Assembly: GCA_965225625.1 (NCBI GenBank)
Contig: CBDDBH010000002.1
Span: forward strand, 7,156 to 71,155
Reading direction: 5' to 3'
Length of the DNA: 64,000 nt
DNA from: Gammaproteobacteria bacterium
GTDB lineage: Bacteria > Pseudomonadota > Gammaproteobacteria > JADZEE01
The position numbers and the translations under genes are program-made. The notes under the pieces are model-generated. The model was given only the letters and a program-made list of their open reading frames with translations. It was not told the DNA's origin and searched no databases. This document shows positions 3,031-37,646 of the stretch, piece after piece. Every line of letters begins with the position of its first letter. Within the stretch, counting starts at the first letter, position 1.

Positions 3031-4227
3031 CTAAGCGGAATCGGCAGCCGCGGGATCGAGCGCCCGTAAACGCGCATGCACGTAACAATAGGCAAGAAAC
3101 GCGAACAGCGTACTGGCGGCACCGAGATACATGATGATTGCATAACCGAAACCCTTGCCGAGCAGCAAGCCTGCGGCACTCGGCGCGATCGTCATGGCAA
3201 GTCCCTGCGCTGCAGGCGTCAGTGCGCAGTAGCGGCCGGTGTGATCGAGCTTGGCCAAGGTGCCGAGCTGGTATATGTCGATAAAATTCCAGAACAAGAA
3301 CACCACACCGGTGCTGATAAAATACATAACCGGACTGACATTAGTTCCGAACAGCGCCATCGTCACGGCGACGATCCCCAGCGACCAGATCAGCGGCCGG
3401 GACAGACCCGCCCGTTGGCTCAACCAATACGCAACCCCGCAGCCGGTTAGGCTCAAGATAGTGCAGTAAGCCAGAAATTCGCCGACGAATGCGGTTGTGA
3501 AGCCGAGATGGACGCCGATACGTTCGAGATAGGACCAGTACGCGCCCACCATGAAATAAAACCCGAACACCGCACTGAGTCCGATCCACGCAAGCACAGC
3601 AGGCAACACAATCGGCTGCGCCGCGCTCTGGGCATCGTTCGCCACAGCATCCGCATCGAAGAATGGTGGCAACAGATGGACCAGGCCCAGGCCACAGGCG
3701 ACGATACCGGCCAGTGTCAGGAACAATCCATTTGGACCCCATTGCAACGCAATATACGGGAATGAATACAACATCAGCGCGTTAACGACGGCGATGCAGA
3801 AAATGAGATAAGTAAAGTTGCGCGCCGTTTGCGTGGAACCGGCGACAATAGCCACGACAACGGCGTAGACCGCACCACCGCCTGCCCCGGCTAAGAAGCG
3901 CAGCACCATAAGCGTGCTGATCGCATGTGGTAGACAGGACATCAGGTTAGCCACGATCGCCAGGACTAGTCCGAGCGCAACGGTATGACGTCTGTTGTAG
4001 TGCGCAACTGCAAACGAGGCGACGACAGAAGCCACGAACAGACCGCCGAGATCGGCTGATGCGAGGTATCCCACCTGCTCTACCGTATACCCGGCCTGGT
4101 CGACCAGAGTCCCAACCAGGATCGGCATACCCAGGAAATCGACGTAACCCAGAATCGACAGCGCCACGCACGCCGCAATGCTTGCAGGATAATCAGGACC
4201 GATCTTCGCGATGGCTTGTGCCGTCAT
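3031..4227 (-). CDS. MFS transporter
   Basis: 398 aa with about 12 hydrophobic segments; LRFLAGAGGG motif. Confidence 0.85.
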   Translation of the reverse strand: MTAQAIAKIGPDYPASIAACVALSILGYVDFLGMPILVGTLVDQAGYTVEQVGYLASADLGGLFVASVVASFAVAHYNRRHTVALGLVLAIVANLMSCLPHAISTLMVLRFLAGAGGGAVYAVVVAIVAGSTQTARNFTYLIFCIAVVNALMLYSFPYIALQWGPNGLFLTLAGIVACGLGLVHLLPPFFDADAVANDAQSAAQPIVLPAVLAWIGLSAVFGFYFMVGAYWSYLERIGVHLGFTTAFVGEFLAYCTILSLTGCGVAYWLSQRAGLSRPLIWSLGIVAVTMALFGTNVSPVMYFISTGVVFLFWNFIDIYQLGTLAKLDHTGRYCALTPAAQGLAMTIAPSAAGLLLGKGFGYAIIMYLGAASTLFAFLAYCYVHARLRALDPAAADSA

Positions 4228-4723: not shown

Positions 4724-6202
4724 CTACGCCACGGCAGTTTTCCCCGGCGCCTCCGGCACATCGTAGCTCGACATCAGTTCGTCCACGTACCCATCGAACA
4801 TCGCCCAAGGTGCTTCGCGAAAACTGTGGTTGCGTATGATGAATGACGCACCGGCGTAAAACTTCTCATACTGTTGATGGCGGCCGGCGAACTCGCTGCC
4901 GACAATATCCCACACCAGTTTAAACAGCTTGATACGCTCCAACGCCGGTAACTGTGGCGTTTGCCAGTATTGTTCGAACTTCTCGCGCAAGGCGTCGTCG
5001 TGCATGACGCTGACGCTCGCGGGCATTTGAAACACGCCGCCGCCGGACAGTTCGCGTAAGGTATCAATAAGTTCAGAGTGCGTTTGCGTACACCAATGCA
5101 GGGCCGCATACATCATGCGGCGGTTGAAGGTCTTGAAACCCTGCGGCCAGTCCTCGGCGGCTTCGATCTGACCGCAAACCATACCGGCAAGCCCAGCTTC
5201 CAACGCCGCTAGCTTTCCCAGTGTTTCTCTAACCGCGGGAACTTTGTCGGCGCCGGTCGACTTCACAACCTTGCTCGCCAAACCGATGATCAACTTGAGC
5301 TTCGACAGGAAACGGACGTTGGATTGATGATTGCCGTAGCAATGCGATGGTGTCTGGATATAAATGTTACGGGACAAATCAGGATCGTCCATTACAAACA
5401 CCCGTTCCCACGGCACTTTGACGTTATCGCACATGACCATGCTGTCGGTCTCGTCGAAACGCCAACTCAGCGGACTATCGAATTCGTTGGCAGCGTTCAG
5501 TTCCAACGGTTGCCGCGACCACAACGTGAGTCCCGGGGTATTGACGGGTACCGCACAGGTCACCGCCTGCTTGGTCTGGCTGGATGCGAGCGGAATCAGA
5601 TTACCTATCCAGATCTCATTGGCGAGCACGCCGCCGGTTGCGAGCATTTTCATGCCGGAGACAACGATACCGTCGTCCTCTTCGTTCACCACCTGCAGAG
5701 ATGGAATAGGCAGATTCTGGCGTTCGTAATACTCGGGGTCACGCGCCGCCTGCGGCGGCAGAACGGCATACACCGGATAGACATCGTTCTTTTTCAAATG
5801 CGCGTAGTAGCTCAGCAGGTTGTCACTGAAATTCCGGTTGTCCGTGTTTAGTATTTCAGGCGCCATCGCCATGCCGGTGACGAAGCTTGCAACATGGTCA
5901 GGCGAGCGACCAAACATGCCGTAACTTACGTCGGCTATAACCTGATGAACCCGCATGCGTTTGCGCAGATCCTCGCGCGAACGCGCCTGCAGAAAGTACG
6001 CTGAATAGCGCTCGCCATCTTCCTCGAAGGTCAAGTCGTCACGGTGTTCAGGTGCTGCTTTTACGTCATACATGGAAGCGACGGTACGCGCCGCTTTCGC
6101 AAAGGCCGGATGCGTGGTTACGTCGTCGACCTTCTCATTACCGATATAAACAACCCGGCCGTCGCGCAATTGTTCCAAATGTTCACTGCCTGTTTTCAAC
6201 AT
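4724..6202 (-). CDS. 4-hydroxyphenylacetate 3-hydroxylase (HpaB/TftD/PvcC) family flavin-dependent monooxygenase, oxygenase component
   Basis: LRDGRVVYIGNEKVDDVTTHPAF, GRSPDHV, RFDETDS, GSEFAGRHQQYEKFYAG motifs; 492 aa. Confidence 0.9.
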   Translation of the reverse strand: MLKTGSEHLEQLRDGRVVYIGNEKVDDVTTHPAFAKAARTVASMYDVKAAPEHRDDLTFEEDGERYSAYFLQARSREDLRKRMRVHQVIADVSYGMFGRSPDHVASFVTGMAMAPEILNTDNRNFSDNLLSYYAHLKKNDVYPVYAVLPPQAARDPEYYERQNLPIPSLQVVNEEDDGIVVSGMKMLATGGVLANEIWIGNLIPLASSQTKQAVTCAVPVNTPGLTLWSRQPLELNAANEFDSPLSWRFDETDSMVMCDNVKVPWERVFVMDDPDLSRNIYIQTPSHCYGNHQSNVRFLSKLKLIIGLASKVVKSTGADKVPAVRETLGKLAALEAGLAGMVCGQIEAAEDWPQGFKTFNRRMMYAALHWCTQTHSELIDTLRELSGGGVFQMPASVSVMHDDALREKFEQYWQTPQLPALERIKLFKLVWDIVGSEFAGRHQQYEKFYAGASFIIRNHSFREAPWAMFDGYVDELMSSYDVPEAPGKTAVA

Positions 6203-6217
6203 GCCTATGACTCCCGC

Positions 6218-6787
6218 TTAATTTGCTTCCTGCTCACGTTGATGTTCATGGAGCGAAATCTCGAGTTTCGCGCGCGCCGTCGAGCCGATAAAGCGCTCAA
6301 GCAGACGGGCCAGCAGCGTGAACTCTTCCCGCGTGAATTCGTCGAACAAAATATTGTTGATGCGCTGTCTAAACGGCGCCAGCTTCTCCAGCGCCGCCAT
6401 CCCTGCGCGCGTTAGCGTCACCAATACGCCACGGGCGTCAGCTGGGTTCGGCTGCTTAATCAACAAACCCTTGTCAATTAATTTGTTCGCTTCAACCGTC
6501 ACGTGCGATGAGGCGACGTGCAGGTACTGCGCCAATGTTTTGATCCCCACACCGCCAGCCTCCTGGTAGTGAGCTGTGGCGATCAGGATGAAGTACTGCG
6601 GTCCAGTGGTACCGATTTCCCGCCCAAATGCTTCACGCACCTCTTGAAAGCGCGTCGCGGTGACAAACAGCTCGTAAATTACTTCGCGGAAACGATCATC
6701 GCGTTTGTTACTAAGCAACTGAGAGCGTGTGACACTCAGTGGCGGTCGGTAGTCTACGTGTGCTTTTCTGCCGGCGCTTGTAACCAT
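6218..6787 (-). CDS. MarR family transcriptional regulator
   Basis: wHTH with LIDKGLLIKQPNPADARGVLVTLT; divergent from 6924. Confidence 0.85.
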   Translation of the reverse strand: MVTSAGRKAHVDYRPPLSVTRSQLLSNKRDDRFREVIYELFVTATRFQEVREAFGREIGTTGPQYFILIATAHYQEAGGVGIKTLAQYLHVASSHVTVEANKLIDKGLLIKQPNPADARGVLVTLTRAGMAALEKLAPFRQRINNILFDEFTREEFTLLARLLERFIGSTARAKLEISLHEHQREQEAN

Positions 6788-6923: not shown

Positions 6924-7556
6924 ATGCCCGATTTTCCCGTCGTTCGCGAAAAGATTGCGTTGCTCAACGTTGATATGCAGAACTGTTTCGTCGAAAACTC
7001 GCCGGTAGCCGCACCCGGTGGTCTCGAGGTGCTTGAGAAGATCAACAAATTGATCGGCGCGTGTCGTGAAGCTGGCATACAAATCATTCACGCCGAGCAT
7101 GTACTCAGGCCAGACGGCAGCAACATGGGCGTGCTGGGCGAAGTCGTACCGGTGACACGTGAGGGTTTGATAAATAAAGACAGAGATACCGCACAACTGC
7201 ATCCGGATCTGGCCGTCGCCGATGACGATATTATCCTCGATAAACCGCGTTTCGGTGCGTTTCATGGAACTGATCTCGAACTCATTCTGCGCAACAAAGG
7301 CATCGATACCATCATCGTGACCGGCATTGCCACCAACGTCTGCTGCGACACGACGGCGCGTCAGGCGAATATGGCCGATTTCCGTGTGTTTTTCCTGAGC
7401 GACGGTAATGCGACATTCCCAATCGGGGACGTTACAGCCGAAGAGATCCAGCGGGTGACGTGTGCAACCATGGGTGCATTGTTTGGTCAGGTGATCACTG
7501 TCGATGAAATGATCGACAAGATCCGCTCGGCAAGCGCGACCTCCAACGCAGCGTAG
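6924..7556 (+). CDS. Isochorismatase/cysteine hydrolase family amidohydrolase
   Basis: VDMQNCF, KPRFGAFHGTDL, GIATNVCCDTTAR catalytic Asp-Lys-Cys pattern. Confidence 0.9.
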   Translation: MPDFPVVREKIALLNVDMQNCFVENSPVAAPGGLEVLEKINKLIGACREAGIQIIHAEHVLRPDGSNMGVLGEVVPVTREGLINKDRDTAQLHPDLAVADDDIILDKPRFGAFHGTDLELILRNKGIDTIIVTGIATNVCCDTTARQANMADFRVFFLSDGNATFPIGDVTAEEIQRVTCATMGALFGQVITVDEMIDKIRSASATSNAA

Positions 7557-7578
7557 TTAATCCGCGTAGCTACAGCGG

Positions 7579-8340
7579 CTAGCCCGCGAGGAGCTTCCCG
7601 AATCCCGGGATCGCGTCACCGGCACCTACGCTCTGCAGGCTATGCCAAGCCACTGACGAGTTACTGGTAATGACCGGCTTGCCGAGTTCTGCCTCTAGCG
7701 GTTCGATCACATCGGTCGCGCGAATAGCAGCGCAACTGATGAAATAGGCATCGCCATCCTCGCGCCTGTTCGCGACGACGTAGCGCCGCCAATCTTCTGG
7801 TGACGGATCAAACATGCCGACACCACTGTTTATGCCCATCCCCGATTCATGCACTACCCGAAACCCAGCCCTTTCGAGGAATTCAACCTCACGCTGATTG
7901 ATGTGTGGCGGATACGGCGTCAGTAGCACGACACTGCTAGCGCCCAGCATCTTTAGCGCCGCGACGACCGCTTTGGAGGTGGTGGTCGCAGGCAGTCCGG
8001 TCGCCGCGCGGATCCGCTCGACAATTTCGTCGTCGGCCCCCTCATAGTATGTAGTTGCCGCAGTGCAATGAAACACAATCAAATCCACATTGGCTTGCGC
8101 CAATAGTGCTGCCCCCTCCTCTGCCCGATCAGCCATGCCGAGCACATCCGCCTCGTCGGAGCTGAGCAATTCAAGGCGGGTCGTGTGGAAGGTCACCCCT
8201 GGTGGGGCGATAGCATGGAACTGCGGTTCACTTGTCGTGTTCGTTGACGGGAGCAAAATGCCGATCTTTGCGCGGGTGCCGTATTGAATGGTCATTTGTG
8301 AGTTTGGATCCTTTTGGCGGGGAATCTCCACACTTTTCAT
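7579..8340 (-). CDS. Maleate cis-trans isomerase/Asp-Glu racemase family protein
   Basis: KIGILLPSTN, FHCTAAT, LLTPYP, ISCAAIR (two catalytic Cys), VITSNS; the start may instead be ATG at 8295. Confidence 0.85.
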   Translation of the reverse strand: MKSVEIPRQKDPNSQMTIQYGTRAKIGILLPSTNTTSEPQFHAIAPPGVTFHTTRLELLSSDEADVLGMADRAEEGAALLAQANVDLIVFHCTAATTYYEGADDEIVERIRAATGLPATTTSKAVVAALKMLGASSVVLLTPYPPHINQREVEFLERAGFRVVHESGMGINSGVGMFDPSPEDWRRYVVANRREDGDAYFISCAAIRATDVIEPLEAELGKPVITSNSSVAWHSLQSVGAGDAIPGFGKLLAG

Positions 8341-8641: not shown

Positions 8642-10300
8642 TTACACAGCCGCCTTGTTCTGCGCTTCCATCGCTTCGGGGAACCACGGAGGAATGAAGT
8701 CGAACATTTTGTCGCCTAACCACGCCGGTGCAATATTTCGGCCCCAGTTGAGAATGATCTCGCGCACGCACTCGTCGGTAAAATCGATATTCGCCGCCGG
8801 GCCGCCCCAACCGTAAACCGTATGCGGTAACCAATCGGCCTTTTGTACCAGTTCGCACACGCGCGCCGCTCCCTCCTGCGCTGTCATCTCGCCACGCTCA
8901 ACGGCCGCTTGTGCATCTTCCAGTGTCACCAAAACTTCTTCTACCTTCTCCGTGTAGGGTGCGGATATATCGGCGCGCACTGACTCATCAATACGATCGA
9001 AAAAAGACGAATCGCCCATCTTGGTCTTGATAACGCCGCGCATGAAGTAGAGATCGCCCAACAATTTGCTGCCCAGCCACAAATTGAACCAGGCATTCCA
9101 CATGCTGAAGTCGCCCATGGAGTTATACGCGGACGCGACCATGCGGTCAGTAGCGTTAATCTGCTCGTGCTGCATCTCGTTGAGATGTTCGAAACGCGAC
9201 AGCGAGTAATCGTTGTCCTTCACTGCGTCTTCGATAGCTCGGGCGAGGTAATACAACGATTCGAACGAGTTGATCATGCCGCGCGACAACAGCGCGTCTA
9301 CAAAGCCATAGGCGTGGCTCATCATGACATAGCCAGGTCCGGCGCTCTGGCTCGATGAATATTGCAACTGCCCGGTACCTATCCACGGGCGCACAGGTTC
9401 GATGTTCTCGAAGTGATCCTTGACCGACGGGAACTTGGCTACGAAGTGCCAGAATTCTTCCTCCGCGGTCATGTCATCCGGTTTTGGATATTTCTTAATA
9501 TCCAGCGACAGGCCGATGCTTGCCAACTCGCTTTCGGACACTGCGGTATTGGTAAACGGAATTACCCACCACCAGCCGCCGTCAAAAACGTGGTGCAAGG
9601 TGCCATCGTTATAACCGTAGCGCTCGCTCGGGCGCACAACACCCTCGAGTTCGTCGTAGCTTTTCAAACCTTTGACATGCGCAAAAATGGTACGGCTGTG
9701 GGCGCGCATTTTTGTGGGATCGGTGCGCAAGCCCAACTTGTCCGCTACCGGGGAGCGAAACCCCGAGCCGTCAATGAGCAGCTTGGCTTTGAAGGTATCG
9801 CCGGATGCCGTGCTCAGCGTGACATTATTTTCCTGTAAATCGAAGTCGACGATATCGGTCTCGTCCATATAGTCCGCGCCGCATGACTGCGCCACCTTGA
9901 CCATATGATGGTCGACCTCGGAACGCATGAAATGGCTTTCGGAGCTGAACGGTACCTCGGGAGCAATTACTTGATGCGACTCGCTTTGATCCTGGCGTTG
10001 TCCTTCGCGGTGATACGCAAAGCTGATTGTGCGCTTTTGCCCGCAAACTTTGGACACCCGTTCATTGACTCGATCGACCGAGGTAATGTCGTTTATCTCT
10101 GGCAAATTGAAACGTTCGCCTAGCAGCAACATCCACATGGTCGATTGCGGCAACATGGCTTCGCCAATGGCAAATCGCGGGTGCTTGCCTTTTTCGATTA
10201 CCAGTATCCTCGCGCCCATGCGGGCAATGATGCCGGCGAGGATGGCGCCGGGTAACCCGGAACCCAGCATGACGATGTCAAATTCTTTCTGTGTTGCCAT
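8642..10300 (-). CDS. PrnC-like flavin-dependent halogenase
   Basis: GSGLPG FAD motif, HPRFAIGE, conserved Lys in GQKRT (K89), GTLHHVFDGGWWWVIPF (WxWxIP), GFVDALLSRG; colinear with PrnC as I recall it; GGAG RBS before ATG 10300. Confidence 0.85.
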   Translation of the reverse strand: MATQKEFDIVMLGSGLPGAILAGIIARMGARILVIEKGKHPRFAIGEAMLPQSTMWMLLLGERFNLPEINDITSVDRVNERVSKVCGQKRTISFAYHREGQRQDQSESHQVIAPEVPFSSESHFMRSEVDHHMVKVAQSCGADYMDETDIVDFDLQENNVTLSTASGDTFKAKLLIDGSGFRSPVADKLGLRTDPTKMRAHSRTIFAHVKGLKSYDELEGVVRPSERYGYNDGTLHHVFDGGWWWVIPFTNTAVSESELASIGLSLDIKKYPKPDDMTAEEEFWHFVAKFPSVKDHFENIEPVRPWIGTGQLQYSSSQSAGPGYVMMSHAYGFVDALLSRGMINSFESLYYLARAIEDAVKDNDYSLSRFEHLNEMQHEQINATDRMVASAYNSMGDFSMWNAWFNLWLGSKLLGDLYFMRGVIKTKMGDSSFFDRIDESVRADISAPYTEKVEEVLVTLEDAQAAVERGEMTAQEGAARVCELVQKADWLPHTVYGWGGPAANIDFTDECVREIILNWGRNIAPAWLGDKMFDFIPPWFPEAMEAQNKAAV

Positions 10301-10315
10301 TGCTGATACTCCCAC

Positions 10316-10924
10316 TTATAGGTCGACGTAACCCGTGTTCTCGAGCAAATGCGCCTCGATCGGGATCTTCAGGCTATCGTGAATAGTGTTGTACATCTTC
10401 CAAAAGCCGACAACGCCGGCGAGTTCGACGATCTGGGGCGGGCTTAAATGCTCGGCCAGTCGCTCACGGATCTCATCGGGTACGTTGGACGGATCCATCG
10501 ACGCTGCACCGACAAAATCGAAACACACGCGTTCGAACTCGTCTTCCGGCGGCGCCTCGCCGGTCAACATGGCGCTCAGATCCTCGTCCGCCATACCCCA
10601 ACCCTCGGCGCCCGGGCCTTGCGGCGCTTTCAGGATGCCGCAGTGGTGCGCGGTACAGTAGGTACAGCCGTTGATTTTGCTCGCAACCGCACCGAGCCGC
10701 CGTTTTAGGTTTTGATCCAGCGTCGAGCTTTTGTCTCGCATTATCCGGCTGTTGAGAGCGAATAAGGTCTCAGCGATTTCGGGCCGATGCATATAAAACT
10801 TCAAAGCATTGGGCAAAAAACCCATGCGTTCCTTATACGGCCCGACGATGGGTTCCAGCGATTCGGGAACGTCCTCCACATAGGGAATGAACGGTTGGTC
10901 TTCAACGGCGGCTGTTTCTGTCAT
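10316..10924 (-). CDS. AhpD/carboxymuconolactone decarboxylase family protein (Bmp8-like motif set)
   Basis: SKINGCTYCTAHH (C87, C90, H93) and C-terminal FWKMYN (N179). Confidence 0.8.
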   Translation of the reverse strand: MTETAAVEDQPFIPYVEDVPESLEPIVGPYKERMGFLPNALKFYMHRPEIAETLFALNSRIMRDKSSTLDQNLKRRLGAVASKINGCTYCTAHHCGILKAPQGPGAEGWGMADEDLSAMLTGEAPPEDEFERVCFDFVGAASMDPSNVPDEIRERLAEHLSPPQIVELAGVVGFWKMYNTIHDSLKIPIEAHLLENTGYVDL

Positions 10925-10939
10925 TGTTTTAACCTCGGC

Positions 10940-12346
10940 TTACAAATAATCCGCTAAGTTAACTTTGCCCCAATTCTTGGGCCAGGCACGTTTAAAATCC
11001 TTGGCGTCATACCGGCCTTTTATGGTCGCATCGATCCCGACTTTGGCGACGGTGCGCCACGGCGCGTGGCCCTCGACTGGTTGCGCCGACGGATCGTAGA
11101 GAGAACCGCGGGTATTGTTGACGACGATCATGTCACGCCCCGGATCGCAACGCGTGGCGATAGCATGATAGACGTCGGCGGGATCATCAATATCAGTATC
11201 GGGACTTATCGCGACCACCATCTTGGTATTGATCCAGGGTGCGCCCATGGTCTGCATGAGCGCGTCGTTGACGAACCCATCTCGCGGCGCCTCGACCTGG
11301 ATAATGCACGACAGCGCGGCGCCCCAGGGAGGAAAGCGAACGTCCGTGACCTTCAGTCCGATCTCGCTGATCCGGTTGTACAGTACAGCTTCATGACAAA
11401 GCCGGGGAAGTACAACGTGATCCGTGTTCGCGGTGGTCTGATGCCGCCGGTACACCGGCTTGCCGCTGCGCAGGGTCATCGCCGTGACGTGGACCTCTGG
11501 CAACCGTTGGGCCGGCGGCATCCAGTAAGTCGATGGGCCGACCGACGGGCCGTAATCGAACAAATCTTTCAGATTAACGATGCCCTCGACAACGATCTCG
11601 GCATGCGCAGGGACCGTGAGATCGATGGTCTCACAGCGCACCATTTCGATATCCATGTCCATGATGGTGCCAACCATTTCCATCTCGCCCCACAGATCCA
11701 TGTGTAGCCCGGAGAACTGCGCCATGATCTCGTAAGCCGGCGGCACGCCGAAGATCAGCGCCACCGGCATTTCAGTCTCGCCCATGTCGCGATACTTGCG
11801 CATGACCACGTGACTGTGGGGCGTGACGAAACTGATTAATCCTCGACGTGGTCCCGTGGGTGTCGTGCCGGCATTGCAGGAGTTGTAAAAACCAGTCTCC
11901 GGATCGCGAATGATGTTCATCGGCGACATATAGGTATCGGGTTCCAGATCGGAGTGAATGGACGCGGGTAATTTAGTCCAGTCCACCTCATCACCAATTA
12001 ACACGACATCTTTAACCGGCCCGGTATCCACGTCTACAAATCCGCGTGGGGCTTTACGCAGGCGTTGCGCCAGCGTTGGCAGGTAATCTTCCTCGCTGAC
12101 CCCAAGCGCGCGACACTGCGAGCGTCGATCTCTGACCATGATGTCGCAGACGCTGAAATCCGGGAACTCTTTGATATTGTCGAACACGATCGGCCCCGGG
12201 CTCTGCGATACGAGCGCGCCGATATCGTCGATATTTACCGGTTTGGTGATACGCGTGACAATGTCAGCGTTGGTTTCGAGATAGCCGCGCAGATCCGGAT
12301 CCAGCGTCGGTTTCCCCGATTCGATGTGTGCTTGTGCCGTTGCCAT
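10940..12346 (-). CDS. UbiD-family protein with degenerate active site
   Basis: DPETGFYN, PVALIFG, CETIDLTVPAHAEIVVEG, IDATIK; lacks the canonical Arg and the EGPFGE motif. Confidence 0.85.
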   Translation of the reverse strand: MATAQAHIESGKPTLDPDLRGYLETNADIVTRITKPVNIDDIGALVSQSPGPIVFDNIKEFPDFSVCDIMVRDRRSQCRALGVSEEDYLPTLAQRLRKAPRGFVDVDTGPVKDVVLIGDEVDWTKLPASIHSDLEPDTYMSPMNIIRDPETGFYNSCNAGTTPTGPRRGLISFVTPHSHVVMRKYRDMGETEMPVALIFGVPPAYEIMAQFSGLHMDLWGEMEMVGTIMDMDIEMVRCETIDLTVPAHAEIVVEGIVNLKDLFDYGPSVGPSTYWMPPAQRLPEVHVTAMTLRSGKPVYRRHQTTANTDHVVLPRLCHEAVLYNRISEIGLKVTDVRFPPWGAALSCIIQVEAPRDGFVNDALMQTMGAPWINTKMVVAISPDTDIDDPADVYHAIATRCDPGRDMIVVNNTRGSLYDPSAQPVEGHAPWRTVAKVGIDATIKGRYDAKDFKRAWPKNWGKVNLADYL

Positions 12347-12385
12347 GTTGGCCTCCAGATTTTTTTGGTTTGACTGAGTTCGCGC

Positions 12386-12694
12386 TTACGCTTCGATCGC
12401 TACCTGCACATCGTCACCTTCGATGCGCACTTTGTGGACCGGCACCGGCGCACCCATCGTCGTGGTGCCGGTCTCCAGAGAGAACTCCCAGCCGTGCAGG
12501 GGACAGATCACCTGGCCGTTATTGACCCATCCATCGGCCAGTGGCCCTCCCTGGTGCGGACACAGATTGTCGATGGCGCGCACCGCATCGCCGACGCGAA
12601 ACAACGCGACCTGCCGGCCATCGACCATTACACACTTGCCTTCGTCTTCCTCCAAATCACTGAGTGACGCCACAGTTTGGAATTCCATACTCAT
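12386..12694 (-). CDS. Rieske [2Fe-2S] ferredoxin
   Basis: CPHQGGPL...CPLHGWEF; ATGA overlap with the upstream UbiD stop. Confidence 0.9.
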   Translation of the reverse strand: MSMEFQTVASLSDLEEDEGKCVMVDGRQVALFRVGDAVRAIDNLCPHQGGPLADGWVNNGQVICPLHGWEFSLETGTTTMGAPVPVHKVRIEGDDVQVAIEA

Positions 12695-14208
12695 TCCTCC
12701 AACGCACCGCCACCCACCGTTGGTTTTTTGCCGGGTTTAGAAATGATCCCCTCCTCATGACTGACAATGCGCTCCATGGGTAGCTCCGCACCGTCGAGGT
12801 TATCGACAAAATCGCTCAATTCGACCTTGCCCTGGCCCATCGGCCAGGTGCGATGCAGTTCCCACCAATCCGTATCGTCTTTAGGCGGCAGCACGCTCGC
12901 ATCGATGATGGCCTTGCCATTTACACGGAACATACCTCCAGGCACGCGCTCCGCGCTGGGCATCAATGGTGATGCGCGTAACTCGGGAATAATCGTCGTA
13001 TCCGCGCCCCAGTTGGCGCGGATAGTCATCGCCCAAACTACATCGCGCGCATCATAGATGTTGACGTCGCGGTTTACCGCGACCGCCACCTGGCTCATGA
13101 ATCCGAGCGTGGTATTTTCCATGGTCAGCATTTTCATCAGCGCGTCACGTGCGTCGCCGCGTGCCCGTGGCGTCATCTGTACGATCCCGAATGCACAACC
13201 GCCCCAGGATGGAAAGTAGACATCGTGCACTTCAATCCCCATCTCGGTTAGCGCGGTGAACAAGCTGCCTTCGTTCGGCAGCATGGCCAAACGCTGGTGT
13301 TCGGTCCATACCGTCGATTGCACGTGCCGGTAAATCGGGTTCTTACGCATGGTGATCCGATCGACCCGGTATACCAGCGCCTTTTGTATTCCATCCCTGG
13401 ACATCGGCCCCGCGCAATAGGTACCCAGGTAATTACCAAAGGGTCCTTCGTTCTGCATCACCCCGGGCATGACAACGCCTTCCACAATGATTTCCGATGA
13501 CGCGGGCACGTCGATGTCGATGGTGTCGCACTTGACCAGTTCGGCTGGCTCGCCGAGGAAATTACCGGCGTAGTCGAGTTCTCCGCAATATGGGTGATGC
13601 ACGCTCAGTGAAGCAGTGACCTCCCAGGCGGGATGGGAACCGATAGACAGGGCCATGGGCATCGGCTCGCCGCGCGCGGCATATTTGCCGGCGATGCGTC
13701 CCACGTGCGGCGAAAAGATAAGAAATGGACAGTTCTTGCCATCGGTAATCTGGCTGCGCGGCCAGGTGGTGTTGTGCATCCCGGTATCCGGATCGACGAC
13801 GATACCCAGCGCGCTGCCCAGATAACGGCCACCGTCGAGTTCGGAATGATGCACGATCGGCAATCGTGACAGGTTGGCGTCATCGCCCTCCCATACAACT
13901 TCTTTTGCCGGCGAATCTTTGACGACGTTATGCGGCAACGGTCCCTTGTCGATGGCACTGGCAACGGCGCGCACGACATCCTCGCGATTTTCCACACCAA
14001 AGACAATGCGCTCCATATCGCGGTTATTGACCAGATTGGAAACCACGGTCCAATCTTCATAGCCCTTAACGTTCTCGAACAACATCGCCCTGTCGGACTG
14101 ATCGGCAAGCGCGGCCAGATTGGTTGACGGATCGACTTCCTTGGCCACGCGATACAAGCGGCCAGCCGCTTCAGCATCGTCGAGAAAACTGCGAAGACTT
14201 TTGGACAT
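12691..14208 (-). CDS. UbiD-family (prFMN-dependent) decarboxylase-like protein
   Basis: DGGRY, DPDTGMHNTTWPR, VPASSEIIVEG, EGPFGNYLGTY, IIDAS. Confidence 0.88.
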   Translation of the reverse strand: MSKSLRSFLDDAEAAGRLYRVAKEVDPSTNLAALADQSDRAMLFENVKGYEDWTVVSNLVNNRDMERIVFGVENREDVVRAVASAIDKGPLPHNVVKDSPAKEVVWEGDDANLSRLPIVHHSELDGGRYLGSALGIVVDPDTGMHNTTWPRSQITDGKNCPFLIFSPHVGRIAGKYAARGEPMPMALSIGSHPAWEVTASLSVHHPYCGELDYAGNFLGEPAELVKCDTIDIDVPASSEIIVEGVVMPGVMQNEGPFGNYLGTYCAGPMSRDGIQKALVYRVDRITMRKNPIYRHVQSTVWTEHQRLAMLPNEGSLFTALTEMGIEVHDVYFPSWGGCAFGIVQMTPRARGDARDALMKMLTMENTTLGFMSQVAVAVNRDVNIYDARDVVWAMTIRANWGADTTIIPELRASPLMPSAERVPGGMFRVNGKAIIDASVLPPKDDTDWWELHRTWPMGQGKVELSDFVDNLDGAELPMERIVSHEEGIISKPGKKPTVGGGALEE

Positions 14209-14276: not shown

Positions 14277-14948
14277 TTAGATTGCCCGTCCAATCGAACG
14301 GCCGAATGATGCGATATGCGAGCGGATCGCAGCCGATGCTTTGTCGCTGTCATGGGCGGCAATCGCTTCGAACACTGCACGGTGCTCACGTTGAACTCGC
14401 TGTAATTGTTTAATATCGCTGAGCGAAACAAACCAGAAACGCAGAGCACGGTCGTGCAGACGCGAAAGCAGATCGGCCAGCACACGATTGCGCGCGGCGG
14501 CCGCGATCGCCTGATGAAACTCGCGATCCAAATCCATTAAGCCCTCGTGATCCCGCTGCTCGGTCAGCGGTACTGCGCGCTCCAGGATCTCGCGCATGCC
14601 CTCTATATCCTGAGCTGTCGCGCGTTCAGCCGCGAGCGCTGCACACAAGCCCTCATTGGGCGCCCGCACCTCGATCAAATCTTTCACTTCGTCCAGGGTT
14701 ATCGGGTTGACGACAACCCCCTTGCGCGGCAACACCTGAACCATCCCTTCCATATCCAGACGTTTCAGCGCCTGGTGCACCGGCATACGGCCCAATCCTA
14801 ACTCGAGACAGATCGAGGACTCATTCAGGTACGCGCCCGGGTGATACTTGAGCGTTATGATGCGCCGCTTTATCGCTTCGTAGGCGCGCTCCTGCAAGGA
14901 CTCGACCACGGCCCCATTAGCGCGTGCCAGTTGCCTGTTTTCGCGCAC
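14277..14948 (-). CDS. GntR/FCD family transcriptional regulator
   Basis: LQERAYEAIKRRII...LGLGRMPVHQALKRL HTH; FCD domain DREFHQAI; GTG start at 14948 chosen to avoid overlap with the cupin gene. Confidence 0.88.
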   Translation of the reverse strand: MRENRQLARANGAVVESLQERAYEAIKRRIITLKYHPGAYLNESSICLELGLGRMPVHQALKRLDMEGMVQVLPRKGVVVNPITLDEVKDLIEVRAPNEGLCAALAAERATAQDIEGMREILERAVPLTEQRDHEGLMDLDREFHQAIAAAARNRVLADLLSRLHDRALRFWFVSLSDIKQLQRVQREHRAVFEAIAAHDSDKASAAIRSHIASFGRSIGRAI

Positions 14949-14953
14949 GGGTA

Positions 14954-15346
14954 TCAATCGTCGCGCGGATCGTAATAATGCATTTCGAACATTACGCAAC
15001 CGTTTTCTGATTTGAACGGGCCGTGATGAGCGCCCGGCGGACGACAGGCGTAGGTCGGCGCGAAAAACTGCTCGCCGCCCTCGCCGTTCTCATCGTTGCC
15101 GACGATCAAATCCCCTTCGATCAGGTAGACCTCTTCCCAGTGATTGTGCACGAACGGAGCTTTGGAATAGGCACCTGGATCCAATCTCATTAGCCGTGAA
15201 CGGCTGCCGATCTTTCGCTTCTCGTCGATGTCACTGGTGAGGATCTTGTGCTGGAAGCTTGACGGATAACCTGGTGGGGTGACCCAGTCCGTGTCCGGAT
15301 CCAATCTCAGGAATTCCAAGTGCGGTTTACGTTTTTCATCAGCCAT
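14954..15346 (-). CDS. Cupin-domain protein (ChrR-like cupin)
   Basis: HNHWEEVYLIEGDL and YACRPPGAHHGPF cupin motifs. Confidence 0.8.
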   Translation of the reverse strand: MADEKRKPHLEFLRLDPDTDWVTPPGYPSSFQHKILTSDIDEKRKIGSRSRLMRLDPGAYSKAPFVHNHWEEVYLIEGDLIVGNDENGEGGEQFFAPTYACRPPGAHHGPFKSENGCVMFEMHYYDPRDD

Positions 15347-15362: not shown

Positions 15363-16058
15363 TTATTCGGCTACAGGCAGCTCTCGGATCGAATAGTCAT
15401 GAGTCAGTTTGCGTCCCAATATGGGATCTTCGAGTTCCATCGTGAACGCCGCTGCAGGTCGTACCTTACCCTGAACCGCCAGTGTCCCACAGAACATGGC
15501 AGTACCGGGCGCGAGACCGCCATCGGCTTCGTCGTACAGGTTCATGAGTTCACTCGGCAATCGCAAGCCGCTAATCGAACCTTCTTGATAGATCACGCGG
15601 TCACCATCGATTTGTGCATAGGAACGCAGTACCAGATCGTCCCAATGTGCAACGACATCGTCGTACGACCACAGCGTATTGGAAATCGGCTTCGCACAGG
15701 CCTGCTTGGCCACGGTCACACTGTAAGTTTCTGCCTCACGATCGGTATGATCCGACCCCACGGCAACCCACAGTACATCGCCGATCTGCAATAACACTGC
15801 TTCGGCTTCACCACTGGACGCCGCGCCGGCGACGTCAATCGATTGTGCAGTCGTCAGCAGGCTTGCCGCGACCCGGTAAAACGTCGGCGTCGATTTCGGC
15901 CGTGGAATACCGAGCTCCTCGAGTTCGCGGATATGCGCCTCCATCGCCGCGGCGTCACGACCAGTCCAGCCGGCAATGACCAGGTCATCGATCGACGCAG
16001 TCAGCTCCGTTTCCAGCCCCTGGTGGATTGCGCTAAATGCGAGATTGTTGGCTGCCAT
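15363..16058 (-). CDS. DUF2848 family protein
   Basis: IAGWTGRD...HIRELEELG...P.FY, SSGEAE, GSDHTDR, KQACAKP pattern. Confidence 0.8.
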   Translation of the reverse strand: MAANNLAFSAIHQGLETELTASIDDLVIAGWTGRDAAAMEAHIRELEELGIPRPKSTPTFYRVAASLLTTAQSIDVAGAASSGEAEAVLLQIGDVLWVAVGSDHTDREAETYSVTVAKQACAKPISNTLWSYDDVVAHWDDLVLRSYAQIDGDRVIYQEGSISGLRLPSELMNLYDEADGGLAPGTAMFCGTLAVQGKVRPAAAFTMELEDPILGRKLTHDYSIRELPVAE

Positions 16059-16066
16059 CGATAACC

Positions 16067-17215
16067 TCAGAAAATATTCGAACGTTCGTACTGCACCGGC
16101 CAGCGTACATTATCCGCCTTCAAAGCTTTGGCGCTGCGCAAAGGCCACACCGGATCGGCGAGCAGCGTGCGGCCGAGCACGACGAGATCGGCCTGTCCGT
16201 TGGCGATAATCGATTCCGCCAGATCCGGACTGTTGATGAGACCAATGGCGCCTGTCGCCAATCCAGTTTCGGCTTTAATCCGTTGCGCGAACGCTACCTG
16301 ATAACCCGGATGGATTGGGATCTGCTGGCGTGGATCGTTACCGCCGGAGGAACAATCGATCAGATCCACATCGCCGCGTTCACGCAATCGTTGGCACAGC
16401 CAAAGACTATCCTCTAACGACCAGCCGCCTTCGACCCAATCCGTTACCGACAAGCGCAAAAACAGGGGCAGCTCAGCGGGCCACTCGTCGCGGATCGCAT
16501 CCAGCGTTTGCAGCAGCAGCCGTGCGCGATTGTCGATAGAGCCGCCGTACTCGTCAGTACGCTGATTGCTCAGCGGCGAGAGGAATTGGTGGAACAAATA
16601 CCCATGGGCTGCATGGACCTCCAGGATCCGAAATCCAGCTTCGCGCGCACGCCGCACCGCGGCTCGATAATCTTCGATGGACTGCGCAATGACCTCGGCA
16701 TCCATGGCTGTAGGCGTTGGCCAGCCTCGCGCATAGGCGAGCACACTTGGTGCAATCGGCAGCCAACCGCCCGCATCCACGGAAATCGGTTCGGTTCCCT
16801 CCCACGGACGGCCCACGGAAGCCTTGCGGCCGGCGTGGCCGAGTTGGATCGCCGGTACTGCGTTCTGAGTTTCAATGAATCTCACTATGCGGGCCAGCGC
16901 ATCACGTTGTTCGTCGTTCCACAATCCCAGGCAATGTCGGGTAATGCGGCCACGGGGCTCGGTATGCACTGCTTCCGTGGTGACGATGCCGGCGCCGCCG
17001 GCAGCGCGCGCACCCAGGTGCACGAAGTGCCAGTCATTGACTAGACCATCTTCGGCTGAGTATTGGCACATCGGCGACAGCATGATGCGATTCTTAATGA
17101 TCACCGAACGTATCGTCAGCGGGCGGAACAGATGAGGCTCCGGATCGCGACGCAATATCCGCCGGTCGTTCTCACCGGTCGTACGCGAATCGATTTGTAG
17201 CTCCGCGCGCGTCAA
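16067..17215 (-). CDS. NADH:flavin oxidoreductase (old yellow enzyme, YqjM/XenA type)
   Basis: SPMCQYSA, QLGHAGRKAS, HAAHGYLFHQFLSP, NQRTDEYGGS. Confidence 0.92.
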   Translation of the reverse strand: MTRAELQIDSRTTGENDRRILRRDPEPHLFRPLTIRSVIIKNRIMLSPMCQYSAEDGLVNDWHFVHLGARAAGGAGIVTTEAVHTEPRGRITRHCLGLWNDEQRDALARIVRFIETQNAVPAIQLGHAGRKASVGRPWEGTEPISVDAGGWLPIAPSVLAYARGWPTPTAMDAEVIAQSIEDYRAAVRRAREAGFRILEVHAAHGYLFHQFLSPLSNQRTDEYGGSIDNRARLLLQTLDAIRDEWPAELPLFLRLSVTDWVEGGWSLEDSLWLCQRLRERGDVDLIDCSSGGNDPRQQIPIHPGYQVAFAQRIKAETGLATGAIGLINSPDLAESIIANGQADLVVLGRTLLADPVWPLRSAKALKADNVRWPVQYERSNIF

Positions 17216-17544
17216 AAAATAGACTCCTTTTGCATCGCCTGGTGAAACACCTCGCCCGCGAATGCGGGGAAGCGCGCAAAGTCCTCCCGGGCCGCGGCTC
17301 GGGCGGGCGAACGTAGTGCCGCGTCCAGGGCGGTAGAGGATTCAAACTGCATTTGTGCGAGTAGGCACACCCCACCAGGATTAACAGGATAAGGGTCGCT
17401 GCTGTCCTGCGGCGTGTGTAGAGTGAGCGCCTCTATGCCAGGGAATTGCTTGAGAATTGCAGCGTGCTCTTGCCGGTAATAGTCGGTAAAACGTCGGGGA
17501 TTTTCGGCGGCACCCTGATAGCGCACGAAATACGATACTGACAT
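17212..17544 (-). CDS. EthD family protein
   Basis: 110 aa, FTDYYRQEHAAILKQFPG...AREDFARF; 4-bp overlap with the OYE gene. Confidence 0.75.
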   Translation of the reverse strand: MSVSYFVRYQGAAENPRRFTDYYRQEHAAILKQFPGIEALTLHTPQDSSDPYPVNPGGVCLLAQMQFESSTALDAALRSPARAAAREDFARFPAFAGEVFHQAMQKESIF

Positions 17545-26593: not shown

Positions 26594-27739
26594 TTGAATC
26601 CCTCTGCGCCGCAACCGGCCGAATTGCTCGAACAACTTCGTCATTGGGCGCAAACCCCGTTTGCGCAAAGCGTAAGCATTCCGTCGCAGGTATATACCTC
26701 GAAGGCGTTTCTCGACCTGGAGATCGAGCATATTTTTAAACGCCAATGGATCTGTGCAGGCCGGGTGGACGAGGTCTCGAAACCGGGCGATTACTTCAGT
26801 TTCGACATCGCGGAGTATCCCATCATCGTGCTGCGTGATGAAGCCAACGCTATCAGGGCGATGTCTAATGTGTGTCGACACCGTGCCACCCTTCTGGTTT
26901 CCGGTGCAGGTAACTGCCGCGCGTTCACCTGTCCCTACCATGCGTGGACTTACAACTTAGACGGCGGGTTGCGAACGGCACCTTACATGGATAGGACCGC
27001 GAGTTTCGATAAGACGACTCTGGCACTTCCGCAATATCGGGTCGAAGTCTGGCAGGGCTTTATCTACGTGAATTTGGACGAGAATGCGCCACCCTTTGCA
27101 CGCAACGTCGCCGGATTGGATGCGCTTTTCGAACGACACAGTGTCGCCGATCTGCAGTTCGCATTTCGTGGCAGCATGGAAGTCGCCTGCAACTGGAAGG
27201 TTCAGGTCGAAAATTTTTGTGAAAGTTATCATGTGTTCCAGGTTCACCCGCAGACGATCGAACCTGTCATGACCACTGCCTCAGTGAAAGTGCAGTCCGG
27301 CGGAACCGGCTTCAATCATCACACCCAGAGACCACCTGAGGGCTTTGTCGATCCTGGCCCGCAAGTTTATCCGTATCTTCAGGGCGACGACCGCTCAACG
27401 TTTAACCTCATGTGTGTGTACCCGTCGCACGCAGTGGCGCTTGGTGCGGAATTCATCAGTTGGTTATCCGTCCACCCACGCGGAACGGATCGCTGTGTGG
27501 TTCACTACGCTGGCGCACTACCCGGCGAACAACCCGATGGTAAAGTCAACGCCGCCCGGGCCGAAGAGACCCGGGCGTACATGCTTGAATTCATGGCCGA
27601 AGACATACTCAGGATCGAGGCCGTTCAAAGAGGTTTCGTCGCCTACGCCGGCGGCTCACCTTATTGCGAAATGGAAAAGACCAACTGGGAATTCGGCCGC
27701 TACATCGTTAATCAAGTTTGTGCCGACCGTGCCATTTGA
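26594..27739 (+). CDS. Rieske non-heme iron oxygenase alpha subunit (choline/carnitine monooxygenase-like)
   Basis: CRHR...CPYHAW Rieske site; NWKVQVENFCESYHVFQVH; EDILRIEAVQRG. Confidence 0.88.
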   Translation: MNPSAPQPAELLEQLRHWAQTPFAQSVSIPSQVYTSKAFLDLEIEHIFKRQWICAGRVDEVSKPGDYFSFDIAEYPIIVLRDEANAIRAMSNVCRHRATLLVSGAGNCRAFTCPYHAWTYNLDGGLRTAPYMDRTASFDKTTLALPQYRVEVWQGFIYVNLDENAPPFARNVAGLDALFERHSVADLQFAFRGSMEVACNWKVQVENFCESYHVFQVHPQTIEPVMTTASVKVQSGGTGFNHHTQRPPEGFVDPGPQVYPYLQGDDRSTFNLMCVYPSHAVALGAEFISWLSVHPRGTDRCVVHYAGALPGEQPDGKVNAARAEETRAYMLEFMAEDILRIEAVQRGFVAYAGGSPYCEMEKTNWEFGRYIVNQVCADRAI

Positions 27740-27952
27740 CCTCGCTCTTGAACTGGCTATCGAGATTGCTCGTGCGATGTCATCTTTATCGAGCAAGCAA
27801 TTCTGGCGGGTGGGGAGACAGCACTGGCGCCTACGTAGCCCTCAGGTAGTCACGAGTTGATCTACGTAGTACTCTCGGAAAGTGCGATTCCTCCGATGTC
27901 CTCTCGCTGTTAGATTCGGTCCTGGTGCACCAGACTACAACGAAAAGACGAC

Positions 27953-28954
27953 GTGAAAGCAATAAGACTCGATGAACTTGGCCCACCTGAGAACCTGAAA
28001 CTCGTCGACATCCCGGTTCCGGAGATCGGCGACGACGATTTACTCATCCGCGTCAGCCTTGCCAGTTTACTGTATGCCGATACTGAACAGCGTCGCGGAA
28101 CCTATTACTTCGAGACCAAACTTCCGCACTACCCGGGCAGGGAAGTCGCAGGAACCATCGAAAAAGTCGGCGCAGATGTCAAAGACTACGAGGTAGGACA
28201 GCGCATTGCCGCGCTCATGTATGCCGGCCACTGCTATGCGGATTATGTAGTTGCGCGTACGCAGCCCTATACCCTGCCAGGTGGGATTGAGGTGCCGAGC
28301 GCCGACATTCAAATACTGCCCGATAACGTATCGTTCGAGCAGAGCCTGGTTTACGTCACGAACTTTCGCCTGGCGTACCTATTGCACCACATCTATATCG
28401 GCATACCGCCAGACGCTACCGTCTTAATCCATGGTGCCGCCGGTGGTGTCGGATCCGTGTGTACGCAAGTTGCGCTGGATCATGGAAACCGGGTGATTGC
28501 CGTATGCCGGACACCGGCACAAGTGGAATTCTGCAAGCAACTCGGAGCCGAATTCATCATCGATGTTGAGACGACTGACTACGTCGCTGCGGTTCTCGAA
28601 ATAACGGCGGACGTGGGCGTCGACTATTCCATCAACGGCGTGGGCGGCACGACGCTCGACAGCGATCCCGGAGCGCTCAAGACCTTTGGCGAAATGATTT
28701 GCTACGGTTATGCGGCCGGCAAATCCAAGATGGATATATTCTCATGTCACAAATGTGTCACCGTCAAGAACTTTGTGCCCGACAACTTCATGGGTGGCGA
28801 CGCATTTGAACGCGTTAATGCGGCTATGTACGAATGGTTTGCGTCGAAACCTCTACTGGAAGTCACGAAGATATTCCCGCTCAAAGATGCAGCAGTGGCT
28901 CATCGCTGGCTTGAGGAAGGAAGGTCGATCGGCAAAATCGCCTTACAGCCTTAA
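27953..28954 (+). CDS. MDR family NADPH:quinone oxidoreductase-like protein
   Basis: PGREVAG, HGAAGGVGS, GRSIGKIAL; no Zn-binding Cys cluster; GTG start. Confidence 0.85.
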   Translation: MKAIRLDELGPPENLKLVDIPVPEIGDDDLLIRVSLASLLYADTEQRRGTYYFETKLPHYPGREVAGTIEKVGADVKDYEVGQRIAALMYAGHCYADYVVARTQPYTLPGGIEVPSADIQILPDNVSFEQSLVYVTNFRLAYLLHHIYIGIPPDATVLIHGAAGGVGSVCTQVALDHGNRVIAVCRTPAQVEFCKQLGAEFIIDVETTDYVAAVLEITADVGVDYSINGVGGTTLDSDPGALKTFGEMICYGYAAGKSKMDIFSCHKCVTVKNFVPDNFMGGDAFERVNAAMYEWFASKPLLEVTKIFPLKDAAVAHRWLEEGRSIGKIALQP

Positions 28955-28968
28955 GCATTAGTTGCCGC

Positions 28969-31817: not shown

Positions 31818-31826
31818 GACTGGGCA

Positions 31827-32657
31827 ATGGAATTCGAAAGCAAATTTGTCGATATCGAGGGTGTGCGCACGCACTATCTGCAAGCCGGCAGCGGTCCGGT
31901 ACTCGTGCTGGTGCATGGCGGCGGCGCCGGTGCCGACGCACGCGGTAACTGGGGAAGTTGTATTGCACAATACGCGCGTGATTTTAGAGTGACCGCGCTC
32001 GACATGGTTGGATTCGGCGAAACCGCGAAACCAGATCCCGCCACCTACAACTACGGTCGCGACAGCCGTAACCAGCACCTCGCTGCGTTCATCGAAAGCT
32101 TGGGGGCGGGCGCGGTACATGTGATCGGTAATTCTATGGGTGGTGCAACGGCGCTCGGGGTCGCGATCAACCGGCCAGAATTGCTGAACAAGATGGTTTT
32201 GATGGGCAGCGCTGGCATTGCGGTCAACAACCCGGACCGCGGCGTCATGAAGGCGCTGTCCGAGTACGACTTCACGGTCGAGGGCATGCGCCGGCTGATG
32301 CAGACGCTAACCGGCACGGATTATAAAATCGACGACGCGCTGGTTCACTACCGCTATGAATTGACAATCACACCGCAAGCGCGCGCCGCACTTGCCGCGA
32401 TGCGCGAGGCCACCAAGCGAGAAGGATTGTCCTACCCCGACGAGGACGTAGCGGCGGTTCGCACGCCGACCTTGGTAGTCGGTGGCAAGGAAGATAAGAT
32501 CGCAATCCTCGCCCGTACTTATCGATTCCTGGAACTGCTCGAAAATTCCTGGGGATTCATCCTCCCGCACTGTGGTCACTGGGTCATGATCGAACGGCCG
32601 GAGGAATTCGTCACCGTGACCACGGCCTTCCTGCAGAAGCAGGGCTTTGGATTGTGA
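31827..32657 (+). CDS. Meta-cleavage product hydrolase (BphD/CarC-like alpha/beta hydrolase)
   Basis: HGGGAG, GNSMGG nucleophile, GHWVMIE. Confidence 0.85.
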   Translation: MEFESKFVDIEGVRTHYLQAGSGPVLVLVHGGGAGADARGNWGSCIAQYARDFRVTALDMVGFGETAKPDPATYNYGRDSRNQHLAAFIESLGAGAVHVIGNSMGGATALGVAINRPELLNKMVLMGSAGIAVNNPDRGVMKALSEYDFTVEGMRRLMQTLTGTDYKIDDALVHYRYELTITPQARAALAAMREATKREGLSYPDEDVAAVRTPTLVVGGKEDKIAILARTYRFLELLENSWGFILPHCGHWVMIERPEEFVTVTTAFLQKQGFGL

Positions 32658-32660
32658 TGA

Positions 32661-32909: not shown

Positions 32910-32951
32910 TGGCAACGGTCAGATCCTGCGCTAAGGTAAGAAACCGCACCC

Positions 32952-33761: not shown

Positions 33762-33802
33762 CCCGCAGTACTGGATGACCGGGGGTGGATGCCTGACCGA
33801 AA

Positions 33803-35959: not shown

Positions 35960-35961
35960 TT

Positions 35962-37625: not shown

Positions 37626-37646
37626 GGAGCGCACCGGAGGACGACC

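Follow-up and report, generated by a model that had tools for sequence, protein, structure and literature searches.

To our knowledge, every UbiD enzyme characterised so far is a redox-neutral (de)carboxylase with an invariant Glu-Arg-Glu/Asp network. Here we describe a 64-kb stretch of DNA from a Gammaproteobacteria bacterium (contig CBDDBH010000002.1; the whole stretch is called the window) in which two genes for UbiD-fold proteins, UbiD-L (P0003) and UbiD-S (P0001), stand on either side of a gene for a Rieske ferredoxin (Table 1), and compare it with the closest described systems. In Fdc1, the ferulic acid decarboxylase of A. niger and S. cerevisiae, the network consists of E277-R173-E282; the acid at 282 is needed for activity, only the Glu to Asp exchanges at 277 and 282 retain activity, and maturation is badly affected solely by R173A (PMC5818171). 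HmfF, the 2,5-furandicarboxylate decarboxylase (PDB 6H6V/6H6X), has the full E-R-E set and a UbiX-type partner, HmfG, and phenylphosphate carboxylase has two divergent UbiD-family genes (alpha and beta) per locus. An inactive radical of the cofactor, prenylated flavin mononucleotide (prFMN), poses a known problem to UbiD enzymes that accessory proteins such as PhdC and LpdD deal with, according to PMC13040415. The handling of the redox state of the UbiD cofactor in the cell is still an open problem in the field.

Two pairings were recognised at the locus. UbiD-L and the Rieske ferredoxin form an obligate, tight, rare and previously undescribed module (module B), and UbiD-S forms with an AhpD-like Cys/His protein a widespread, autonomous module (module A) that often travels with genes for EthD, Old Yellow Enzyme (OYE) and Cupin_7 proteins. 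By a small measure we lean towards reading the stretch as pieces of two distinct non-canonical UbiD modules, repeatedly found together in an accessory cluster, with UbiD-L as a redox-coupled prFMN enzyme.

Both proteins belong to the UbiD family by fold and by Pfam cut-offs (domain calls throughout are from Pfam and NCBIfam scans of translated open reading frames), and prFMN binding is predicted for them. HmfF was the best sequence and fold match to both: UbiD-L aligned with 6H6V at residue level (E 4.5e-60) and UbiD-S with HmfF at E 3e-42, and the AlphaFold2 models, each with a predicted local distance difference test (pLDDT) score of 82 and with predicted template-modelling scores of 0.81-0.84, matched 6H6V with template-modelling scores of 0.78/0.88 in Foldseek (UbiD-L) and 0.81/0.85 (UbiD-S). 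Common to all three proteins are the three-domain architecture, the Mn/K-phosphate ligands and a C-terminal ...GK..L.DYL ending; the WP..GKV.L.D(Y/F) tail that a preliminary description of the window had listed as shared by the two paralogues is real but no marker of the pair, since HmfF has it too. UbiD-L differs from HmfF by its E-R-N site, an insertion after the motif, a C-terminal tail of ~50 amino acids and its Rieske partner, whereas UbiD-S has none of the three catalytic residues and has an AhpD-like partner. Residues N168, R173, H191, E233, E277 and E282 of Fdc1 map onto both proteins, but where Fdc1 has its essential acid at 282, UbiD-L has Asn clade-wide, and in UbiD-S the position is Gly or varies. 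The likeness to phenylphosphate carboxylase lies in the two divergent UbiD-family genes, with weak matches to NCBIfam phenyl_P_alpha/beta that lie far below the cut-off; unlike that system, the locus lacks genes for gamma and delta subunits and includes an Fe-S ferredoxin, and the two paralogues are neighbours in some loci only and can each be found without the other, so that the steady co-encoding of two paralogues seen in heteromers of this type was not found.

Literature searches for heteromeric or inactive UbiDs returned canonical systems only. The Cupriavidus xanthine-8-carboxylate decarboxylase, a canonical UbiD/UbiX homo-hexamer, was rejected as unrelated. The searches found no functional link of UbiD with a Rieske protein, nothing on the UbiD-L/Rieske system, no paper combining UbiD and AhpD and no mention of DUF2848. 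The UbiD-L/Rieske module appears to be new among UbiD proteins, and there is a real chance that its chemistry is new as well.

UbiD-L and its Rieske ferredoxin

The preliminary description, made by eye, had read in UbiD-L a DGGRY motif, the Arg of N-x4-R and EGPFGN in the place of the acid motif. All are present (DGGRY at residues 125-129, NTTWPR at 146-151 and EGPFGN at 254-259), and in HMMER alignments with HmfF 6H6V and ShVdcC 7AE4 the residue that falls exactly on the second Glu of EGPFGE is N259, the flanking residues being identical. The catalytic triad position is thus E254-R151-N259 and the Glu-Arg-Glu/Asp network is incomplete. The metal and phosphate ligands N146, H168 and E210, equivalent to N168, H191 and E233 of the Mn2+/K+ flavin-phosphate site of Fdc1, are invariant in the clade. 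EGPFGN was found in 44/45 clade members (53-82% identity), the remaining one carrying Asp, and the clade is further marked by NTT[WF]PR, HHPxCGELD, the insertion after the motif (residues 262-271) and the C-terminal tail. Among the best 150 of 1.84 billion cluster representatives (50% identity), Asn at the acid position was restricted to the UbiD-L clade and a 44%-identical sister clade. The UbiD-L clade is rare: searched exhaustively, these 1.84 billion representatives gave 2 full-length ones, one free and one Rieske-fused, and a search of 185,579 species genomes gave 7 loci (one duplicating L001 and one belonging to the sister clade), all in metagenome-assembled genomes of Alphaproteobacteria, Gammaproteobacteria, Binatia and Tectomicrobia.

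The Rieske protein has the cluster ligands C45-P-H47 and C64-P-L-H67, invariant in 13/13 free and fused copies, in boxes that read CPHQGG and CPLHGW, with no extra Cys of the high-potential bc1/b6f disulfide type, and among solved structures it comes closest to the electron-donor ferredoxins of the naphthalene, carbazole, biphenyl and toluene oxygenases. Judged from these features, it should be of the low-potential, dioxygenase-ferredoxin donor type. Ten distinct UbiD-L loci entered a comparison of gene context: the window, L001, L002, L003, L005/L018/L021, L006, L007, L009, L019 and L020. A Rieske gene was adjacent to or fused with UbiD-L in all nine distinct loci with readable downstream sequence, and the adjacency spans Alphaproteobacteria, Gammaproteobacteria and Binatia. 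Seven proteins are natural UbiD-L::Rieske fusions, in which the Rieske domain lies at the UbiD-L C-terminus. The window gene pair shares an ATGA overlap of UbiD-L stop and Rieske ATG, with GGAGGA within the UbiD-L 3' end; because a 39-nt spacer with its own GGAGG precedes UbiD-S, strict coupling is limited to the UbiD-L/Rieske junction. Of the earlier proposal of a translationally coupled Rieske protein bridging the two UbiDs, the coupling therefore stood but the bridging did not, as UbiD-L and Rieske also occur without UbiD-S.

The type of ferredoxin is that of the three-component Rieske oxygenase chains (BphA4/BphA3, NDO, TodAB, CarAd/Ac), and in three lineages the likeness extends to a reductase with Pyr_redox_2 and Reductase_C domains, which directly precedes UbiD-L in L005/L018 and L009 and lies 4.6 kb upstream of it in L019; the difference is that here the neighbour or fusion partner of the ferredoxin is a UbiD-fold protein and not a Rieske/mononuclear-iron oxygenase. 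The operon of L005/L018 runs reductase, UbiD-L, Rieske, two further genes and UbiX. The two further genes (L018 11914-14035; L005 11905-14033) encode a ~305-amino-acid protein without Pfam match and a DUF2390 protein, and have no counterparts in the window.

UbiD-S, its AhpD-like partner and the gene context

The reading of UbiD-S as a protein without the Arg, DGGRY and both Glu was borne out by alignments to HmfF and T. atroviride Fdc: it has EPDTY, NSCNAG (Arg replaced by Gly160) and DYGPSVGP, with Tyr264 and Gly269 in the two Glu positions, which gives Y264-G160-G269 in place of the Glu-Arg-Glu/Asp network. The residue equivalence assumed for the two proteins held against HmfF, ShVdcC and T. 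atroviride Fdc, and both models have the UbiD fold. All 30 aligned UbiD-S members have Gly in place of the Arg, and neither Glu position has a conserved acid, and N155, H177 and E221, the equivalents of Fdc1 N168, H191 and E233, are invariant, as are many further His, Arg and Asp residues (mean column identity 73%). Loss of the Arg-Glu-Glu set is, from this alignment, a family-wide trait of UbiD-S. Local decay of the two UbiDs, which the preliminary description had raised as an alternative, is rejected, since the non-canonical motif states are conserved throughout both families.

The UbiD-S family gave 1194 matches, the best 120 of which were all at least 64% identical. UbiD-S is mostly found apart from UbiD-L, and an AhpD-like gene usually comes next to it, as in the window. 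Relatives with 67-70% identity occur in L011-L015 without any UbiD-L or Rieske gene. AhpD-like orthologues (46-59% identical) lie directly 3' of UbiD-S in L003, L007, L013, L014, L015 and L021, those of L013, L014 and L015 being 46-51% identical to the window protein, whose matches of known structure include PDB 2PFX (2e-10) and, as second-best solved relative, the debrominase Bmp8 (3e-8). The Cys motif of the AhpD-like protein is NGCTYCTAHH (CxxC) in the window and N[RQ]SAYCVAHN, with Ser for the first Cys, in L013 (11425-12009) and L014 (11416-12015); on these sequences, the redox motif of the partner varies within the family.

UbiD-S was found in the same cluster as UbiD-L in 5/10 loci (window, L002, L003, L007 and L018/L021), two of the ten being too short or cut for judging its presence. 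It adjoins UbiD-L/Rieske in the window and in L002 only, where the gene overlapping UbiD-S is a fused UbiD-L::Rieske. Cupin_7 and DUF2848 genes stand between UbiD-L and UbiD-S in L003 and L007; in L021 UbiD-S heads a separate operon (UbiD-S, AhpD-like, EthD, OYE, Cupin_7) 10 kb upstream of UbiD-L, and L001 and L019 have UbiD-L and Rieske with no UbiD-S within 8-10 kb. Cupin_7 and DUF2848 genes were each present in 6/10 UbiD-L loci, as was DUF3179. In a maximum-likelihood tree UbiD-S is sister (97/95 support) to a group of UbiD-L, its Asn-only sister clade and the P0059/P0060 clade, which lacks the motif; the whole is nested within canonical E-R-E relatives, themselves beside HmfF-like proteins, and the UbiD-S copies found with UbiD-L do not group together but are interspersed with stand-alone ones. 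The canonical-motif relative P0054 has UbiX as its next gene, with a 4-bp overlap.

Further non-canonical UbiD clades lie near this one (P0059/P0060 of L016, and P0216/P0227/P0243). One of them is without the Arg and the entire EGPFGE loop and has a 12-residue insertion in the DGG region, and another reads R...DGPSPS, with Asp and Ser instead of the two Glu. OYE genes and a CMD-like (carboxymuconolactone decarboxylase-like) gene are again found nearby in L016.

Proposed electron transfer to UbiD-L and the competing explanations

Because the two modules are repeatedly co-located, they most likely act in one pathway, in which UbiD-S would not be a silent structural subunit of UbiD-L. UbiD-L itself is probably no plain acid-base decarboxylase, because nearly the whole clade has Asn in place of the Glu that donates a proton to the substrate-prFMN adduct; from the Fdc1 mutants, an E-R-N site should still bind and mature prFMN but should not run the normal protonation step. 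We infer an electron chain that starts at NAD(P)H, passes the reductase and the Rieske protein and ends at UbiD-L, and which would deliver single electrons to the enzyme-bound prFMN, because a ferredoxin of the low-potential donor type is always present, is sometimes fused 1:1 and is sometimes preceded by an NAD(P)H reductase. Turnover of UbiD-L, or a constant re-setting of its cofactor by reduction of the dead-end prFMN radical, would then depend on the ferredoxin. The redox route through the ferredoxin had been among the suggestions of the preliminary description, and with the ferredoxin specifically tied to UbiD-L it is still a reasonable reading. The electrons could be spent in each turnover or only for the rescue of the inactive radical; the fusion and the lost acid tilt us towards a catalytic or constantly required role. 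If they are consumed in every cycle, which we put forward as a tentative possibility, UbiD-L, Rieske and the reductase where present would make up a three-component, NAD(P)H-driven class of prFMN enzyme, performing, for example, oxygen-activating or reductive decarboxylation or resolving the adduct with an electrophile (hypohalite of the neighbouring halogenase) instead of a proton, and prFMN chemistry would extend beyond redox-neutral (de)carboxylation. The UbiD-L clade offers a direct experimental handle on whether prFMN can be used or reset by single-electron transfer, and on the chemistry that is possible once there is no protonation step. The UbiD-S/AhpD-like pair, common in environmental genomes, is just as unstudied.

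Several points weigh against separate modules with a redox-coupled UbiD-L. The 64-kb window contains no ferredoxin reductase, and in L019 a divergent regulator stands between the reductase and UbiD-L, so that other enzymes could be the ones served by this reductase. As the preliminary description had stated, no ubiX is found in the window (tblastn with the bona fide UbiX of L017, best E 2.9), although this seems to say little, since the related L005/L018 lineage has ubiX in the UbiD-L operon. The grounds for predicting prFMN binding are the conserved ligands and the UbiX of that one lineage. The sister clade (L010, P0048, P0210) has the Asn with neither Rieske neighbour nor C-terminal tail, and the notion that Asn always accompanies Rieske was rejected on this account. 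The insertion at 262-271, which is modelled with low pLDDT, could supply a substitute acid that is invisible to alignment. Finally, a complex would fit the arrangement of the two UbiD genes, which lie close together as neighbours in the window and share a 4-bp overlap in L002.

The last point bears on the proposal, contained in the preliminary description, of a heteromer with UbiD-S as structural subunit. An obligate hetero-oligomer similar to phenylphosphate carboxylase alpha/beta, with UbiD-S as scaffold without catalysis of its own and the Rieske protein as third, bridging subunit, would explain the contiguity of the three genes in the window, the overlap with the fused gene in L002, the presence of both UbiDs in half of the distinct UbiD-L loci, and the sister position of a UbiD-S family devoid of catalytic residues. 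We nevertheless consider it unlikely, and a bridged complex with a structural subunit probably does not hold, because gene order varies and each protein occurs independently: UbiD-L and Rieske do without UbiD-S in L001 and L019, the paralogues belong to separate operons in L021 and have intervening genes in L003 and L007, and the UbiD-S relatives stand alone or with the AhpD-like gene only. The scatter of UbiD-L-accompanying copies in the tree argues in the same direction, and UbiD-S, with its high column identity and many invariant residues, looks like an independently constrained enzyme. Somewhat less improbable, though still doubtful to us, is that UbiD-L is an ordinary reversible (de)carboxylase that uses another residue as acid (from the inserted loop, or the His or Cys of HHPxCGELD), the Rieske protein serving only in cofactor maturation or repair. 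PhdC, a maturase with an HpaC-like flavin reductase fold, and LpdD, a small chaperone, would be its analogues, being extra proteins encoded next to a UbiD that take care of prFMN delivery or of its redox state (PMC13040415, PMC10865409); neither is an Fe-S protein, and the abstracts mention none fused to a UbiD. Dedicated maturation factors exist, and the one-electron oxidant ferricyanide can drive the radical to the iminium (PMC13040415); Arg151, the equivalent of the residue most needed for Fdc1 maturation, is kept, and the insertion beside the motif is clade-specific. This insertion, however, holds no candidate acid that is invariant across the clade alignment, a 1:1 covalent fusion throughout a subclade would be unusual for a mere maturation helper, and a low-potential ferredoxin of donor type working with NAD(P)H reductases should, going by the known potentials of Rieske ferredoxins, be a poor oxidant for this step. 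The redox link of UbiD-L to its ferredoxin holds up on the sequences compared.

We also considered whether the Rieske protein stands between the UbiDs by coincidence and is either a NirD-like subunit or a ferredoxin shared by the three Rieske oxygenases of the window, for which no ferredoxin of their own is in view. The protein just passes the NCBIfam NirD cut-off (TIGR02378: 79.2 vs 74.65 bits) and would probably be labelled nitrite reductase small subunit by automatic annotation. NirD identity was rejected on the UbiD-gene neighbours in every locus and the intact cluster ligands, no NirB-like gene was found among the annotated neighbours, and with the adjacency to UbiD-L kept across three bacterial classes and seven fusions, an incidental position is highly improbable.

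The ten-gene block and its surroundings

The UbiD genes are part of a tight co-directional block of ten genes that runs on the minus strand from 17544 to 8642, with the EthD gene first and the halogenase homologue last (Table 1). A promoter and terminator scan of the block found no noteworthy internal terminator and nothing exceeding chance, and no usable RNA run was found to cover the region. With the TTG start assigned to it, the GntR gene shares 46 nt with the end of the Cupin_7 gene (14954-14999), and the true start is probably further downstream; GntR/FCD genes flank the L020 cluster as well. No solved relative of the DUF2848 protein was found by sequence.

Table 1. Genes of the block and the Amdase-like gene downstream of it, in order of transcription.
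Feature	Position	Strand	Assignment and remarks
EthD-domain protein	17212-17544	-	Pfam EthD; first gene of block; orthologues beside OYE in L003, L005/L018, L007, L014
Old Yellow Enzyme-family FMN oxidoreductase (OYE)	16067-17215	-	Pfam Oxidored_FMN E 7e-66; 63-75% identical orthologues in L003, L005/L018, L007, L014
DUF2848 protein, recurrent cluster member	15363-16058	-	Pfam E 2e-77; orthologues in same loci as Cupin_7
Cupin_7 (ChrR-like cupin), recurrent cluster member	14954-15346	-	Pfam; orthologues in L002, L003, L005/L018, L007, L020
GntR/FCD regulator inside operon	14277-14999	-	Pfam GntR and FCD
UbiD-L (P0003), 505-aa HmfF-like UbiD-fold protein	12691-14208	-	Pfam UbiD_N/UbiD/UbiD_C
Rieske [2Fe-2S] ferredoxin, 102 aa, dioxygenase-ferredoxin type	12386-12694	-	Pfam Rieske/Rieske_2
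UbiD-S (P0001), 468-aa UbiD-fold protein	10940-12346	-	Pfam UbiD/UbiD_C
AhpD/CMD-like protein, 202 aa, CxxCxxH	10316-10924	-	NCBIfam peroxidase-related
Flavin-dependent halogenase homologue, CtcP/PltM type	8642-10315	-	Abuts AhpD-like gene
Arylmalonate decarboxylase / maleate-isomerase-like gene (Asp/Glu racemase superfamily)	7579-8340	-	Pfam Amdase E 3e-29

The halogenase homologue matched the tetracycline 7-halogenase (PDB 7XGB/7V0B, E 5e-108) and PltM (1e-78). Orthologues with 49-60% identity occur in L003, L007 and L019 and a Pfam Trp_halogenase in L020, so that a halogenase of CtcP/PltM type recurs in 5/10 UbiD-L loci. No nonribosomal peptide synthetase or polyketide synthase context and no flavin reductase were seen in the window; L003 and L009 do carry a flavin reductase. 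Together with the Bmp8-like AhpD protein, the halogenase homologue may point to electron-rich phenolic or pyrrolic compounds, and the recurrence of this phenol/pyrrole-type halogenase with the UbiD-S/AhpD-like pair hints at a pathway for electron-rich, possibly halogenated, aromatic acids. The link to halogenation suggested in the preliminary description is therefore conceivable from this recurrence, and decarboxylative halogenation in the cluster is possible.

The Amdase-like gene lies 301 nt downstream of the halogenase and has no counterpart in related loci, and its membership of the cluster is uncertain. An isochorismatase-family gene on the plus strand adjoins it (6924-8340 for both genes), an arrangement that resembles the maleamate amidase and maleate isomerase pair of N-heterocycle pathways. 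Beyond the isochorismatase gene are a MarR gene (6218-6787), an HpaB-type monooxygenase (4724-6202) and a major facilitator superfamily (MFS) transporter (3031-4227); MarR and HpaB homologues also occur in L014. On the other side of the block, an aromatic-catabolism region (26594-38924) contains the three Rieske oxygenases (26594-27739; alpha and beta, 34742-36492; LigXa-like, 37647-38924), a LigB-type extradiol dioxygenase (36492-37481), a thiamine pyrophosphate enzyme and an MFS transporter, with no ferredoxin or reductase among the genes scanned there. A 666-amino-acid tetratricopeptide-repeat protein with a C-terminal sulfotransferase domain is encoded at 956-2956.

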